Below the pieces are notes generated by a model. That model was given only the letters and a program-made list of their open reading frames with translations, did no database searches and was not told the origin of the DNA. Made by a program: the position numbers and the translations under genes. 38,726 bases of DNA from Deltaproteobacteria bacterium. Its GTDB lineage: Bacteria > Desulfobacterota > Binatia > Binatales > Binataceae. This document shows, piece by piece, positions 18,192-24,160 of the stretch (the stretch's first letter is position 1; every line of letters starts with the position of its first letter). The stretch is taken from the NCBI GenBank assembly GCA_021799555.1, contig JAJZAG010000003.1, forward strand, positions 1-38,726. Direction: 5' to 3'.

Positions 18192-19634
18192 TCACACGTG
18201 CGGATAGGCGTCGCTGCCCATTTCAAGTGCGTCGAGCCCCGACCATTCCACTTCCGCGAGCACGCGGTTCCCGAGGATACGCTCGACGATCGTAAAAAAG
18301 ATCCACGCCAATCCGAATATCACAACGAAATTGACGCAGACACCGATAAGCTGAGCGACGAATTGACCCGGATCGCCGTACAGCAAGCCGCGCACCGGAC
18401 CCGCAACGCCGTTCCATCCTTCTCCGTAGCTGCCGTCGGCGAAAATTCCGAGCGCCAGCGAACCCCATAGTCCGCACGCGCCATGCACCGCGATCGCCCC
18501 GACCGGATCGTCAAGGCGGAGGCGGCGTTCGAGCGCGATTACCGCAGCGACCACCAACAAACCCCCGACCACCCCAATCAGCACTGCCGCAGCGGGCGTC
18601 ACGAAAGCGCACGGCGCGGTGATCGCTACCAGACCGCCGAGCAATCCGTTGCAGGCCATCGCGATGTCCGGTTTTTTGTAGCGATGCCATAGATAGAGGA
18701 TTGCGGAAAGCGCGCCGGCCGACGACGACAACATGGTATTCGCGGCAATAACGCCAATTCGTGGATCTGTCGCCGCCAGCGACGACCCCGCGTTAAAGCC
18801 GAACCATCCAAACGCGAGGATCAGTGTTCCGATCACCGCCATCGGCAGATTGTGCCCGGGCAGGGCGCCGATCGCGCCGTCGCGACGAAATCTTCCGATA
18901 CGCGGCCCCAGAACGATCACGCCCGCCAACGCAACTACTCCGCCCGTCATGTGCACTACGGCGGAGCCGGCGAAATCGACCTGCCCATGACCGAGGCCAA
19001 GATTGACGCCGAGTTGCGATAGCCATCCACCTCCCCACACCCAATTGCCATAGAGCGGGTAGAGGAACATCGCAATGAAAAATCCGTAGATGAAAAATGC
19101 CGAGAACTTCCACCGCTCCGCCATCGCGCCGGTTGGAATCGTCGCCGCAGTATCCATGAAGACGACGGCGAATAAGAACATCGCGAGGCTGGCCGGATCG
19201 TGGCTGACGCTGGCGAGTGCGAATTTACTGAATCCAATAATTCCCCATATGTGCCCGCCCAAGGTGAGCGAAAGTTCGCAATGGCTCATTCCGGCGTCGC
19301 CGAGCGACGGCCACTGATGCACTCCGCCCATCATGAAGGCGTACCCGGTTAGCCAGAATCCGACGACACCGATCGGGTAGATGACGAGATTCATCGCCAT
19401 CGTGTTGACCGCATTCTTCGCGCGCGTGAAGCCGGTCTCGACCATCGCGAAACCCGCCTGCATGAACATCACCAGGAAACCCGCGACAAGCACCCAAGCG
19501 AGGTTGAGCGATTGATCTATCGGCGCGGCCAGCGGCGTCGATTGGGCGTGCGCGCGACTCGCGGCCATTAGTATCGGCGCCGCCGCGGAGATAGCGAGGG
19601 CGCAAGCGGTGAGACTTAAGCGGCGGCGATTCAT
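18192..19634 (-). CDS. amt: Ammonium transporter (Amt family) with cleavable signal peptide
   Basis: Signature DFAGSAVVHMTGG, 11 or more TM segments, and the N-terminus MNRRRLSLTACALAISAAAPILMAASRAHAQS. The ATG at 19634 overlaps the kinase TGA (ATGA). I rejected the 19700 extension. Confidence 0.95.
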   Translation of the reverse strand: MNRRRLSLTACALAISAAAPILMAASRAHAQSTPLAAPIDQSLNLAWVLVAGFLVMFMQAGFAMVETGFTRAKNAVNTMAMNLVIYPIGVVGFWLTGYAFMMGGVHQWPSLGDAGMSHCELSLTLGGHIWGIIGFSKFALASVSHDPASLAMFLFAVVFMDTAATIPTGAMAERWKFSAFFIYGFFIAMFLYPLYGNWVWGGGWLSQLGVNLGLGHGQVDFAGSAVVHMTGGVVALAGVIVLGPRIGRFRRDGAIGALPGHNLPMAVIGTLILAFGWFGFNAGSSLAATDPRIGVIAANTMLSSSAGALSAILYLWHRYKKPDIAMACNGLLGGLVAITAPCAFVTPAAAVLIGVVGGLLVVAAVIALERRLRLDDPVGAIAVHGACGLWGSLALGIFADGSYGEGWNGVAGPVRGLLYGDPGQFVAQLIGVCVNFVVIFGLAWIFFTIVERILGNRVLAEVEWSGLDALEMGSDAYPHV

Positions 19635-20647
19635 CTCATTTCCCCTCGGAATGATTTTCGCGGTGGCGCCTTTGCCGCCGGATAGCGGTTCGCGAGCCAA
19701 ATGAGGAAAACGAAAAATCCAATCAGCGAGACGAAAAACAGCACGAATCCCGCGCTGCGTCGGATCTTCTGCGCGCGCAGACTGCGCGGCTTCAGGAGCT
19801 CGGCGCGCCCGCGCGGCACCACCCGCGAGGGTTCGCGCAGATCGGCAAGCATCTCGGCTGCACTCGCGTAGCGGTTTTTTGGCGACCGCTCGATCGCGTG
19901 CAGGATGATTTCCTCAAGCTTGGGATCAAGATCCTTTACGAACTCGGTCGGCGGATGCGGATCCTCGTTGGTTTTTGCCCGCATCATGCTGTAAACATTG
20001 CTTCCGGCGTAAGGCAGATTCCCCGCCAGCATCTCATAGAGCATCACGCCAAGCGCGTAGATATCGGTGCGCGCGTCGCCACGTCGTCCGCTGACCTGCT
20101 CCGGCGCCATATAGTCGGGGGTGCCGATCGTCGAGGAGAGCCCCGACCACGTGAGGCGCCGCGCCGATTCGTCGAGTGCGATTCCAAAGTCCATGATTTT
20201 GACTGTGCCGTCGGCGGTGACGAGAATATTTTCCGGCTTGAGATCGCGATGCACGACGCCGTGGCCGTGCATGTAAACCAATGCTTCGCAAATCTGTATC
20301 GCGTACCCGAGCGCCTTGCCCGGCGGCATCGGGCGCTCGCGGCGCATCAACTCGCGCATCGACGTGCCATCCACGAACTCCATCGCGATATACATCCGGC
20401 TTTTGTGCACCGGAGTGAGGACCTTGATGATATTGCGATGGTCAAGGCGTCGAACGACCTCTTCCTCGCGCTGGAAGCGGCCGTAAAAGATCACGTCACT
20501 CTCGAATTGCAGGTAAGGAACTTTGATCGCGACGGTCTGACCGGTGACGAGATCAACTCCCTTGAATATCGACGCCATCCCGCTGCGCGCGATCACCTCG
20601 GTAAGCTTGTACTGATCGAGGGTTTCGCCGACGCTGACCTCGCGCAT
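19631..20647 (-). CDS. Hanks-type Ser/Thr protein kinase, C-terminally membrane anchored
   Basis: VAIK lysine, HRDLKPENIL, DFGIA and GTPDYMAPEQ motifs. There is a single TM segment (FVLFFVSLIGFFVFLIWLA) 19 aa from the C-terminus. The glycine loop is degenerate (IARSGMAS). Confidence 0.9.
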   Translation of the reverse strand: MREVSVGETLDQYKLTEVIARSGMASIFKGVDLVTGQTVAIKVPYLQFESDVIFYGRFQREEEVVRRLDHRNIIKVLTPVHKSRMYIAMEFVDGTSMRELMRRERPMPPGKALGYAIQICEALVYMHGHGVVHRDLKPENILVTADGTVKIMDFGIALDESARRLTWSGLSSTIGTPDYMAPEQVSGRRGDARTDIYALGVMLYEMLAGNLPYAGSNVYSMMRAKTNEDPHPPTEFVKDLDPKLEEIILHAIERSPKNRYASAAEMLADLREPSRVVPRGRAELLKPRSLRAQKIRRSAGFVLFFVSLIGFFVFLIWLANRYPAAKAPPRKSFRGEMR

Positions 20648-20762
20648 GGATCTTATGCCTGGCTGACGGACGGTCTGGCCGCGAAAGTTACCACGCCATG
20701 AAAGCCCAAACCAGCCAGAGATTCAGCACATCTAACGAATGCGGCATATCTCGAATCCCACT

Positions 20763-21677
20763 CTATCCGCGGCATCCGAGAATGCGGCCAAGCCTTGCCC
20801 GCCATCCTGCTGGCATAGGACGCAATCCCGTATCGGCTATCATCGTGAAGACCGCAACGGTTAGATTGTCGGCGGTGCCGCGTTCATTGGCAGTTTCGAT
20901 CAGGATGCGACATGCGTCTTTTGCGTCGCGATCTCGGCTCAAATGTTCCAGCTCGCTGTCGCTCAGCACGCCGTGTAGACCGTCGCTGCACAGAATCAGG
21001 CGGTCGCCGCGCACCAGTGGCATCGAGATTCTATCCACCGAAACGATCAGTTCCTGCCCGATGCTCCGCACCAGCATCGAGCGTTCAGGATGATTGCGCG
21101 CGCGCTCGGCGCTGAGCAGCCCCATCCGGACTCTTTCCGCAACCATCGTGTGATCCTTGGTGAGCTGCGTGATTTTGTGATGCCGCGCCAGATATAGCCG
21201 GCAATCGCCTACATGCGCCGCGGCCAGCATCCCCTTCTCGATCGCGACGGCGGTCAGCGTCGTCCCCATCCTGCGCAGTTCGGGCACGGCAAGCGCGCGA
21301 TTGTGAATTTCGATATTGGCATATTGAACGGCGCGCACGAGGCGTTTTGCTGCCCCCCACGACGAGGGGCTTTCACGCCATGCCTCGAGCGTCAGCTCGA
21401 TCGCCATCGCGCTTGCGACTTCGCCGCCCTCATAGCCACCGATTCCGTCGGCGATCGCGAACACCACCGTGTCGGGGGAATCGATCAGGTGACCGCAGGA
21501 GTCCTCGTTGTCGGGACGATTGGTTCCGACATCCGACAGCACCGCCAGATCGAAATTGCCCGCGCAGGGTGCGGGCTCGGCAAATGGCGGCTTGTGTTCA
21601 GCTTCAGACACTGGCGCCAATACTATCTCAATTCTTATAGACGGGTTGGGAGCGGACGACGCCTTGGCGGGCGCCAT
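20763..21677 (-). CDS. PP2C-family Ser/Thr protein phosphatase
   Basis: Motifs NEDS, ADGIGG, GTT, VGDCR, LTKDH, LILCSDGL and DNLTV appear in the canonical order. A Pro/Ala-rich N-terminal leader of about 40 aa precedes them. Confidence 0.9.
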   Translation of the reverse strand: MAPAKASSAPNPSIRIEIVLAPVSEAEHKPPFAEPAPCAGNFDLAVLSDVGTNRPDNEDSCGHLIDSPDTVVFAIADGIGGYEGGEVASAMAIELTLEAWRESPSSWGAAKRLVRAVQYANIEIHNRALAVPELRRMGTTLTAVAIEKGMLAAAHVGDCRLYLARHHKITQLTKDHTMVAERVRMGLLSAERARNHPERSMLVRSIGQELIVSVDRISMPLVRGDRLILCSDGLHGVLSDSELEHLSRDRDAKDACRILIETANERGTADNLTVAVFTMIADTGLRPMPAGWRARLGRILGCRG

Positions 21678-21709
21678 CCGCTCCCCGTGGTTACGACCGG
21701 CGTGGCTCG

Positions 21710-23488: not shown

Positions 23489-23739
23489 CCGATTTGAAAC
23501 GTAAATCCGATGCATTTTGCACGGCGGATGCTTATGCGATGAGCATCCGCCTGCCGCGCGGTCATCAGGAGCGGGATTTGTTCTCTAGTTGGTTCGCAGA
23601 CTTTTCCAGATCAGGTGGAGGATTCGGCGGAGTTTCGCGGTGGATAATCTTAACCCGCCTGAGCGACAATTTTCGCGCGTCCGCTAACAATCGCCCAATC
23701 TGGGATGCGGACCGCGCGCCGTTAATTTGGAGAGACTTC

Positions 23740-24078
23740 TTAGATCGCTATGTCGCCACGCTCGTCGGTCCGGATCCGGATCACTTCGAGCACGTTTGAA
23801 ACGTAAATCTTGCCGTCGCCGATCCGACCGGTCCGCGCCTTGCGCTGGATCGCTTCGACAACCGCCTCGGCCTGCTCGTCCCGAACGATCACTTCAATCT
23901 TGAGCTTGGGTTTGAAATCGATGATGTATTCGGAGCCGCGATATAGCTCGGTGCGTCCCTTCTGGCGGCCGAATCCTTTGACTTCATAGGTGGTTAGTCC
24001 CGTGATTCCCGCGCGCTCGAGCTCCGCCTTCACCGCATCGATCGTAAACGGCTTGATGATCGCCTCAACCTTCTTCAT
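23740..24078 (-). CDS. glnB: P-II family nitrogen regulatory protein (GlnB/GlnK)
   Basis: 112 aa from [11 protein letters not shown]. The T-loop is [17 protein letters not shown] and the B-loop is [11 protein letters not shown]. The ATG at 24078 has AAAGGA upstream. Confidence 0.95.
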
Positions 24079-24144
24079 CGAGTGCGTCCTTTGCGCCCGG
24101 CGTGTCACCGGCGCGTCCGCGCTTGATTCCTTACGGCGTTCAGA

Positions 24145-24160
24145 CGCAAGAGCGATGCCG
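24145..24160 (-). promoter_or_regulatory. Sigma54-type -24/-12 promoter upstream of the PII gene
   Basis: The minus strand reads CGGCAT-CGCTC-TTGCG with GG-N10-GC spacing. Its 14-nt core GGCATCGCTCTTGC is identical to the element at 23474-23487. It lies about 67 nt upstream of the PII ATG. Confidence 0.5.

Follow-up and report, generated by a model that had tools for sequence, protein, structure and literature searches.

Bacterial and archaeal ammonium transporters of the Amt family are taken to be controlled post-translationally by binding of the PII protein GlnK, and C-terminal phosphorylation of an Amt is, to our knowledge, viewed as a strategy of eukaryotes. In plants, AMT1 is gated by C-terminal phosphorylation (T460; CIPK23-type kinases), and in yeast the kinase Npr1, which acts on the transporter Mep2, also controls the APC-superfamily amino-acid permease Gap1. 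In the mycobacterial GlnH-GlnX-PknG-GarA circuit the kinase PknG is soluble and multidomain, and acts via an FHA protein on glutamate metabolism and glutamate synthase (GOGAT). Phosphorylation of the C-terminal region of Mep2 gates the transporter (PMC4852598), and in Ks-Amt5 (an Amt-histidine kinase) and Sd-Amt1 (an Amt-HAMP-GGDEF protein) an Amt is joined to a cytoplasmic signalling enzyme (PMC5764959, PMC11152129); a 2023 review of prokaryotic Amt proteins mentions no Ser/Thr phosphorylation of a bacterial Amt (PMC10433425). Here we analyse a stretch of 38,726 nucleotides (the window) from a member of the Binataceae, positions 1 to 38,726 of contig JAJZAG010000003.1 (assembly GCA_021799555.1), in which an amt gene overlaps the gene of a Hanks-type Ser/Thr kinase, preceded in turn by genes for a PP2C phosphatase and an APC-superfamily permease. 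This four-gene module recurs well outside the family, which suggests that bacterial eukaryotic-type Ser/Thr kinase and phosphatase (eSTK/eSTP) signalling is applied to Amt control or sensing.

Compared with the GlnK-AmtB system, the locus is alike in carrying a small regulator gene tight to amt, in an expected expression under nitrogen limitation from a sigma54/NtrC-type promoter, in a presumed action at the cytoplasmic face of the Amt trimer and, in the subclade of the window, in the presence of PII within the cluster. It differs in that the gene coupled to amt encodes a predicted membrane-anchored Hanks kinase, PII being absent from most loci, and in that covalent modification by kinase and PP2C is proposed instead of a T-loop plug. 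The module is apparently undescribed so far: no description of a Ser/Thr kinase/PP2C-Amt module was found in the literature that can be searched as full text, where subscription journals are mostly outside coverage and absence is not proof.

Organization of the locus

Five genes follow one another on the minus strand of the window. A PII gene (23740-24078; 112 aa, GlnB-like; PF00543, 107.3 bits) is followed by the four core members of the module, namely the APC-superfamily permease (21710-23383; 557 aa; PF00324, a weak 38.7 bits against a cutoff of 24.6), the PP2C Ser/Thr phosphatase (20763-21677; 304 aa; PF13672, 61.5 bits, cutoff 24), the Hanks-type Ser/Thr kinase (19631-20647; 338 aa; PF00069, 173.8 bits, cutoff 31.7) and the Amt family protein (18192-19634; 480 aa; TIGR00836, 382.2 bits against 343.3). 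The spacers measure 356 nt between PII and permease, 32 nt between permease and PP2C and 115 nt between PP2C and kinase, and the kinase stop and amt start share an ATGA overlap. A preliminary description, made from the letters of the window alone, had given these five reading frames with the same strand, spacers, overlap and family labels; every coordinate is borne out, and Pfam and NCBIfam scores agree with all five labels. PII and amt stand three genes and 4.1 kb apart and not side by side as in the canonical glnK-amtB arrangement, and the layout is most readily explained as two units, PII under a sigma54 promoter of its own and, after it, a permease-PP2C-kinase-amt operon that is likewise sigma54-dependent.

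Conservation in Binataceae

A kinase relative was found in 358 species-representative genomes. Using the window proteins as tblastn queries, we examined the 80 highest-ranking loci (69-89% identity) with their 10-kb flanks; where denominators fall below 80 they are those of the individual feature (Amt 77, PP2C 76, permease 63). Amt lies directly downstream of the kinase in 74/77 loci, PP2C immediately upstream of it in 68/76 (and anywhere upstream on the same strand in 73/76), and the permease upstream in 58/63. At the kinase/amt junction, a 4-nt ATGA or GTGA overlap was present in 73 of 89 Binataceae-type junctions, with a Shine-Dalgarno sequence within the last kinase codons.

PII, on the other hand, was found anywhere in the locus in only 10/80 cases. 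Nine of these belong to the subclade of the window (kinase identity at least 78%), and the tenth, L077, has a canonical PII-Amt pair upstream (Amt identity 47%) and is missing the kinase-linked Amt. What is conserved is therefore the set of permease, PP2C, kinase and Amt, with PII as a neighbour peculiar to one subclade. Given these counts, and since PII also accompanies a minority of loci elsewhere, the original picture of PII and Amt genes split by an inserted module is the wrong description.

Several Binataceae loci carry additional genes. Inserts lie between permease and PP2C or between PP2C and kinase in L063, which has a porin-like 553-aa open reading frame (ORF; 6720-8381) and a small ORF (8521-8859) that is DUF2934-like by eye, and in L023 (7178-8722) and L039 (3734-5782), which have a second APC-type permease of 514 and 682 aa, respectively, with a C-terminal extension that is Usp-like by eye. 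In one Binataceae sublineage (L013/L015, equal to L003/L004; ~7850-9880) tandem PP2C genes of 281 and 279 aa precede the kinase.

Recurrence in other phyla

Ordinary homology searches starting from the kinase and permease were filled up with sequences from Binataceae, and we left the family by an exhaustive search of 50%-identity representatives, followed by a profile of the distant members. Among these representatives were kinase relatives of the same size at 45-54% identity, sharing the odd Gly-rich loop, a PHLQYESD...F.REE block, a DFGIALD..ARRLTW activation loop and the C-terminal helix. In L085, from Thermoanaerobaculia (Acidobacteriota), glnD and PII run in one direction, PP2C lies on the opposite strand and diverges from a kinase-Amt pair, and a convergent permease, glnE (in the direction of the kinase) and glnA (on the opposite strand) follow. 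The same divergent PP2C and kinase-Amt pair with a convergent permease is found in L087, from Polyangia (Myxococcota), in L090, in L091, where GOGAT adjoins, and in L086, from Anaeromyxobacteraceae (Myxococcota), where a second Amt gene follows PP2C on its strand. Over their full lengths the proteins of the window and of L085 are 68% (Amt), 56% (kinase), 55% (PP2C) and 54% (permease) identical.

Eighty further metagenome loci were examined, and the counts given here are for those of non-Binataceae type. Amt lay directly downstream of the kinase in 30/35, with a kinase-amt gap of 0-10 nt in 50 of 58 junctions; PP2C was adjacent in 36/51 (31 divergent, 5 co-directional); and the permease was present in 9 of the 13 loci wide enough to judge. 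In L085, L086, L087, L090 and L091, then, PP2C is divergent and the permease convergent, and the order of kinase and Amt is unchanged. The module is kept in at least three phyla (Binatota, Acidobacteriota and Myxococcota), and since four orthologues kept together across phyla despite changes in orientation are a signature of functional coupling, we hold with considerable confidence that kinase and PP2C are linked in function to this Amt and permease. The gene-neighbourhood check proposed with the preliminary description thus came out in favour of the kinase and PP2C, which do recur beside amt across phyla, and against PII, whose linkage is only occasional. Every carrier found so far is a metagenome-assembled genome, which limits immediate experimental access.

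Membership in the module does not extend to the whole kinase family, as two branches (P0263/L089 and P0353/L088), with kinases 45-52% identical to that of the window, are not Amt-linked. In L088 (stretch 8001-9463) the relative overlaps a 146-aa HTH_8 (Fis-type) gene and lies beside a PAS-histidine kinase-response regulator hybrid, and in L089 (stretch 6158-9026) it stands beside a sigma54-activator response regulator and kdp genes. These neighbours hint that the kinase family signals to sigma54-dependent transcription.

The kinase and the phosphatase

The Pfam match of the kinase covers residues 16-266, within a catalytic domain (11-275) that is followed by a basic linker. The motifs VAIK (K42), HRDLKPEN at 133, DFG at 153 and APE at 181 are all present, and catalytic activity is likely. 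The Gly-rich loop (residues 20-26) reads A-R-S-G-M-A-S and not GxGxxG; it is invariant in Binataceae, and a near-invariant [SG]GMASIFK occupies its place outside the family. Hydropathy predicts a single transmembrane (TM) helix at 301-319, followed by a 19-aa tail that is short, poorly conserved and Pro-rich, and neither a PASTA nor any other sensor domain was found with Pfam and NCBIfam. The PASTA kinase model NF033483 gave 295.7 bits, below its cutoff of 450, and aligned to residues 11-275 only. The closest solved structures are PknB (1e-55) and StkP. Across Binataceae the kinase has an essentially constant length and 74-100% identity. Judged from its sequence, it is a tail-anchored, cytoplasm-facing enzyme in which no input module can be seen.

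The PP2C is soluble and has the PPM fold (PF00481, 45.1 bits, in addition to PF13672), with intact metal-binding motifs DxGxxRxxNED (D49...NED59), ADGIGG (76-81), DGL (232) and TADN (268). Its score with the Stp1/IreP equivalog NF033484, 222.8 bits, falls marginally under the cutoff of 230. Typing it as PphA or Stp1 was attempted and given up, as matches in the PDB to the tPphA-type structures 5ITI and 2J82 (the latter 4.6e-34), to Stp1 (2PK0) and to PstP score alike; being equally close to tPphA, Stp1 and PstP, the enzyme is not assigned to a PII-specific type. Among the called neighbour genes of those loci that have gene calls, no PASTA, FHA or cell-wall Pfam families were found.

The Amt protein

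The Amt has a signal peptide and belongs to the Amt/Mep/Rh family (PF00909, 376.9 bits), its DFAGSAVVH and AIAVHG segments aligning to the His pair of Ks-Amt5. The C-terminal region carries the motif E463-W-S-G-L-D468...Y477, and the protein ends three residues past the conserved Tyr.

Two hallmarks set apart the Amts linked to the kinase. The sequence N-x-x-[IV]-Y in TM2 occurs in 73/73 Binataceae and 50/50 other linked Amts, and E-M-G-[S/T]-[D/E/Q]-A-Y-P in the cytoplasmic C-terminal region occurs in 75/75 and 34/34, respectively. Within the latter, the site corresponding to S474 of the window, which stands three positions ahead of the universally conserved Tyr, is exclusively Ser or Thr (109/109 linked Amts); at the equivalent position, the 19 non-linked Amt paralogues of these loci carry F, M or V. 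Two other potential phosphosites were discarded. S465, inside ExxGxD, is Ser or Thr in 75/75 Binataceae and mostly Ala elsewhere, and the residue that aligns by eye with T460 of plant AMT1;1 is a Leu.

The best PDB relatives of the Amt are Ks-Amt5 (6EU6; 3e-68) and the 644-661 aa fusion proteins 8QJ3 and 8QPF (1e-63), which, from their length and a 2024 paper (PMC11152129), are taken to be Sd-Amt1; the transporters Af-Amt1 (1e-47) and EcAmtB (1e-41) rank lower. Given this ranking it was reasonable to consider that the Amt might itself be an ammonium receptor (AmR), a group defined by the signature Q-X6-E-X15-N-X2-D-[F/T]-X54-60-T-X2-[S/T] (PMC11152129). Q59, E66, N82 and both Thr residues of the signature are present in the window Amt, but I85-Y86 replace D-[F/T], and an insertion of ~23 aa makes the spacing to T-x-x-T longer than the signature allows. 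Since all linked Amts have [IV]-Y where the signature calls for D-[F/T], AmR membership was ruled out. Nor is a signalling module fused to the Amt C-terminus, as it is in the receptors; the kinase is a separate upstream ORF.

In many loci of the Binatus type, the position that PII has in the window is occupied by another Amt paralogue, which is longer (C-terminal extension of ~40 aa; 38-41% identity), together with an ORF of 154-163 aa. It was seen at L030 (4412-6742), in L031, L033, L034, L040, L041 and L047, and further in L049, L050, L053, L055, L064 and L081. At the signature positions it has Q, E, (G), D and T, and so keeps the D-T that is missing from the kinase-linked Amt.

The permease

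The permease has 12 hydrophobic segments by hydropathy and belongs to the APC superfamily. It matches characterised transporters only weakly (CAT1, 2.6e-07; GkApcT, 6e-06), and no NCBIfam subfamily cutoff was reached. Its C-tail contains a near-invariant Ser in a basic patch, R-x-S-[KR]-x-[KR]-[GA]-[KR].

PII and GlnD

The closest structures to PII are GlnB of Aquifex (2EG1; 1e-41) and E. coli (9e-40), followed by E. coli GlnK (9e-34); the NCBIfam equivalogs stay below cutoff (GlnB 146 against 202, GlnK 131 against 181), and both the PII domain and Tyr51 are present. The T-loop, ...LYRGSEY, has the Ser49 and Tyr51 that had been reported for it earlier. The same YRGSEY loop, however, is found in the PII proteins that follow glnD in L085, L093, L103 and L120, so that Ser49 is not specific to kinase-linked PII and lends no support to PII as the favoured substrate. 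In the PII of the canonical PII-Amt pair (L077, L159) the loop is YRGTEY, with Thr49, and Aquifex GlnB also has Ser or Thr at 49.

L085 encodes a 904-aa GlnD (GlnD_UR_UTase, HD and two ACT domains) immediately upstream of PII, PP2C, kinase and Amt, and glnD is also present in L093 and L120, contrary to the expectation that carriers of the module would lack it. Since glnD and PII adjoin in some loci, the module accompanies the GlnD system; replacement of GlnD by the module is refuted for loci of the L085 type. PII is therefore a weak candidate for the target of the kinase, given that it is usually absent, that it follows glnD where it adjoins the module outside Binataceae, that glnD-linked PII has the YRGSEY loop and that PII of the PII-Amt pair has Thr49.

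An ORF of 154-163 aa at the PII position in Binatus-type loci was considered as a PII and rejected, having no Pfam hit and no PII similarity.

Promoters and the ends of the operon

A sigma54-type -24/-12 element, CGGCATCGCTCTTGC, lies upstream of PII (24146-24160, minus strand; consensus scan and conservation), and another, TGGCATCGCTCTTGC, with one mismatch to the consensus, lies ~100 nt before the permease (23474-23488, minus strand). The two sites carry an identical 14-mer, GGCATCGCTCTTGC. A loose scan of the window for the sigma54 consensus gave 33 matches where 36.8 are expected, which is not above chance, and conservation was therefore tested instead. The strict pattern GGCAY-N5-TTGC, which has a background rate of 0.012 per 460 nt, was present before PII in 11/11 PII-bearing loci and before the permease in 35/67 upstream regions, the remaining 32 having, at about -100, TGGCA(C/T)-N5-NTGC or a sequence close to it. 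No such site (GGCAY-N5-TTGC) was found before PP2C, kinase, Amt, GOGAT or the SagB-like gene in the Binataceae loci. Both promoters named in the preliminary description are thus present, and it is their conservation across loci, and not the scan of the window, that settles that they are real. The element before the permease is probably the operon promoter. Sigma54 control is not a general property of the module: it holds in Binataceae, and 0/39 divergent PP2C/kinase spacers of other lineages have such an element.

Some 45 nt upstream of the permease element is an inverted repeat (23523-23551, assigned to no strand) with 13-nt arms, 92% complementary, and the core TGCTCAT-CGC-ATAAGCA. The block is kept in orthologous permease upstream regions, with a conserved core TGCTCAT-CGC-AT[GA]AGCA, and the repeat is a candidate site for an NtrC-type enhancer-binding protein, its TGC-N11-GCA frame being what we take to be the frame of NtrC-type enhancers. 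At the other end, a terminator-like hairpin with a T-rich tail (18171-18186, minus strand; consensus scan only) just past the amt stop probably marks the end of the operon. No riboswitch or small RNA was matched in Rfam at E<=1 in the 356-nt spacer or the leaders.

In Binatus-type loci (L020-L064 type) a conserved hairpin, GCTCCCGCCCGTAACGGGAGC, lies in the permease 5' leader, ~40-100 nt before the start and between the sigma54 element and the start (e.g. L020, ~7210-7270); it has no counterpart in the leader of the window.

Downstream of the module, on the minus strand, Pfam identifies an Lrp/AsnC regulator (14953-15525) and the large (10391-14956) and small (8888-10333) subunits of GOGAT, the latter enzyme being downstream of the module in most Binataceae loci.

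Discussion

Most likely, the kinase/PP2C pair acts on, or takes its signal from, the linked Amt. The preferred mechanism, which we put forward tentatively and at somewhat less than an even chance of being right, is that a co-translated, membrane-tethered kinase working alongside PII/GlnD reversibly phosphorylates the C-terminal region of the Amt and perhaps the permease tail as well. Kinase and Amt would be made together through translational coupling, and the single C-terminal helix would hold the kinase in the same membrane as the Amt; coupling and helix together would bring the catalytic domain to the cytoplasmic face of the Amt trimer. There the kinase would reversibly phosphorylate the cytoplasmic C-terminal region of the Amt, for which S474 is the best candidate site, and it may also phosphorylate the conserved Ser of the permease C-tail, the mark being removed in each case by the PP2C. 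The uptake of ammonium and of an alternative nitrogen source could thereby be switched on and off post-translationally, much as plant AMT1 and yeast Mep2 are switched by phosphorylation in their C-terminal regions. Given the sigma54 promoter and the NtrC-type enhancer-like palindrome of the Binataceae loci, the operon should be expressed under nitrogen limitation.

The parallel with AMT1 and with Mep2 Ser457-Npr1 (PMC4852598) lies in the proposed action of a Ser/Thr kinase and phosphatase on a C-terminal region close to the ExxGxD...Y motif, and the control of Gap1 by Npr1 has its counterpart in the co-conserved permease. The kinases are nevertheless unrelated beyond their fold, the yeast autoinhibitory region is absent here, S474 is at a different position, and the present kinase is gene-linked and predicted to be membrane-anchored. 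The preliminary description had proposed a phospho-mark on PII, Amt or permease; the latter two fit the conservation much better, and PII fits it poorly.

Several points weigh against the phospho-switch. Gene neighbourhood is evidence of functional association and not of who phosphorylates whom, and it is from such association that we infer a contact between kinase and Amt, which protein is the substrate and which way regulation runs. The model is silent on what controls the kinase, which has no evident input domain, and, given the atypical Gly-rich loop (A-R-S-G-M-A-S), kinase activity is assumed and not certain. The Ser/Thr-only position can be structural, forming a hydrogen bond, and not a phospho-acceptor, and the set against which it was compared was limited to 19 paralogues of these loci and did not sample Amts at large; the failure of S465 shows how easily phosphosite candidates fail, and the T460-equivalent position is occupied by Leu. 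Finally, PP2C and kinase occur without a linked Amt in L077, and the kinase alone in L083 and L147.

Given that the kinase lacks a sensor domain and has only a short Pro-rich tail, it would need an input partner, and the Amt could be that input device. We considered this possible, if doubtful: in such a split ammonium receptor kinase, sensing would fall to the Amt and output to the tail-anchored kinase as a detached domain. Binding or translocation of ammonium would alter the cytoplasmic face of the Amt or its TM contacts and so switch the kinase, whose targets would be the permease, PII, regulators of sigma54 genes or GOGAT-related proteins, with the PP2C as the reset. The locus resembles Ks-Amt5 and Sd-Amt1 in joining an Amt, by coupling in all lineages, to a cytoplasmic signalling enzyme; these are also the closest solved relatives of the window Amt (6EU6 and 8QJ3/8QPF before Af-Amt1 and EcAmtB), no GlnK is coupled to amt in most loci, and further Amt receptors using other activation sites are expected (PMC11152129). 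Transport could be left to the second Amt, canonical PII or PII-Amt pair in L085, L086 and L077/L159-type loci, and the relatives beside a sigma54 activator (L089) or HTH_8 gene (L088) hint at transcription-factor substrates. Yet the N1/N2 signature is broken here, one of two charge-compensating acidic ligands being missing from all linked Amts (73/73 and 50/50), and because the sequence group that carries it includes ordinary transporters such as plant AMT1 (PMC11152129), similarity to sensor Amts is not diagnostic. The output, too, is a separate Ser/Thr kinase and not a fused histidine kinase or diguanylate cyclase, PP2C and permease belong to the module, and no Amt-Ser/Thr-kinase fusion was found among the matches listed. 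It is also conceivable, though we consider it unlikely, that the pair mainly controls the APC permease, GOGAT, the Lrp-type regulator or a sigma54 activator, with the Amt merely co-expressed, so that uptake of alternative nitrogen is turned off when ammonium is available or a PknG-GarA-like circuit operates. The permease is the fourth conserved member (58/63 Binataceae loci, 9/13 elsewhere, 54% identity) and has the near-invariant Ser in its basic C-terminal patch; its linkage, however, is looser than that of Amt, with varying orientation and distance and with inserts such as the porin-like ORF and second permease, and no feature is as constant as the stop/start coupling of kinase and amt. GOGAT and Lrp follow the module in most Binataceae loci, with GOGAT in L091 also, and kinase relatives adjoin sigma54-activator or HTH_8 genes, but GOGAT and Lrp are absent from most non-Binataceae loci. 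The locus shares with PknG-GarA a Hanks kinase gene-linked to membrane or solute-binding nitrogen-sensing proteins, and in Binataceae the neighbouring GOGAT; the present kinase, in contrast, is tail-anchored, Amt-coupled and provided with its own PP2C, and no FHA-domain (GarA-like) gene was found among the called genes of the examined loci.

That kinase and PP2C write and erase a mark on Ser49 of the PII T-loop, adding a layer outside GlnD as in the PII/PphA system of the cyanobacteria Synechococcus and Synechocystis (PMC4285133, PMC10651672), is in our judgement improbable. A PP2C and a Ser49 PII do meet here in a nitrogen-regulated setting: in the subclade of the window PII has Ser49 and Tyr51 and lies in the same sigma54-controlled cluster, it is back-to-back with PP2C in L085, L093, L103 and L120, and the target might yet be a PII whose gene lies elsewhere in the genome. 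Against this, PII is absent from 70/80 Binataceae loci and from most others, while the kinase-Amt link is near-universal; the hosts are not cyanobacteria; and where PII adjoins the module outside Binataceae it follows glnD, so that the machinery for Tyr51 uridylylation is present. Neither Ser/Thr49, which recurs in the PII of the L077/L159 pair and in Aquifex GlnB, nor the likeness of the PP2C to the PII-phosphatase homologue tPphA (2J82), which is no closer than that to Stp1 and PstP, discriminates. The kinase for cyanobacterial PII, said earlier never to have been identified, is indeed not firmly identified (PMC4285133), although a candidate for it, SpkB, has existed since 2023 (PMC10651672), and the module by itself leaves that question unsolved. 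Least of all do we believe, giving it only a very slight chance, that the adjacency is meaningless and reflects a housekeeping Stk/Stp pair in a chance or inherited gene order. Like PknB/PstP, StkP/PhpP and Stk1/Stp1, the genes are an adjacent Hanks kinase and PP2C with most similar catalytic domains (PknB and StkP being closest to the kinase domain, and the PP2C scoring 222.8 against 230 as Stp1/IreP), and synteny within one family could be inherited. But the same four orthologues stay together in three phyla despite inversions of PP2C and permease, the kinase is translationally coupled to amt and has neither PASTA repeats nor any extracellular domain, no cell-division or cell-wall neighbours were seen in the examined loci, PP2C is often divergent, and the association with Amt and an APC permease is strict. 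On this the preliminary description was right: with 74/77 loci and two other phyla, kinase and PP2C are a linked pair dedicated to this nitrogen-transport locus.

Should the phospho-switch or the split receptor hold, bacteria too would use a C-terminal phospho-switch on ammonium transporters, or an Amt would have been recruited as the sensor of a Ser/Thr kinase, and either outcome would add a layer of nitrogen regulation in abundant soil lineages. With a split receptor, a Ser/Thr kinase would for the first time serve as the output of an Amt-based receptor, and bacterial nitrogen control would gain a new route of input. The compact four-gene system offers specific residues for mutation, Amt S474 and the permease-tail Ser.

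Upstream of the PII gene

Directly upstream of PII in the window is a 509-aa SagB-type (nitroreductase-fold) dehydrogenase (24281-25810, minus strand) with two SagB/nitroreductase stretches (TIGR03605, 151.9 bits). According to tblastn, roughly half of the Binataceae loci have a SagB-type gene upstream of the module, with no obvious peptide-maturation partner nearby. Between this gene and the PII sigma54 element is an imperfect inverted repeat (24196-24239) with 20-nt arms, 75% complementary, which may act as an enhancer site or terminate transcription of the upstream gene.

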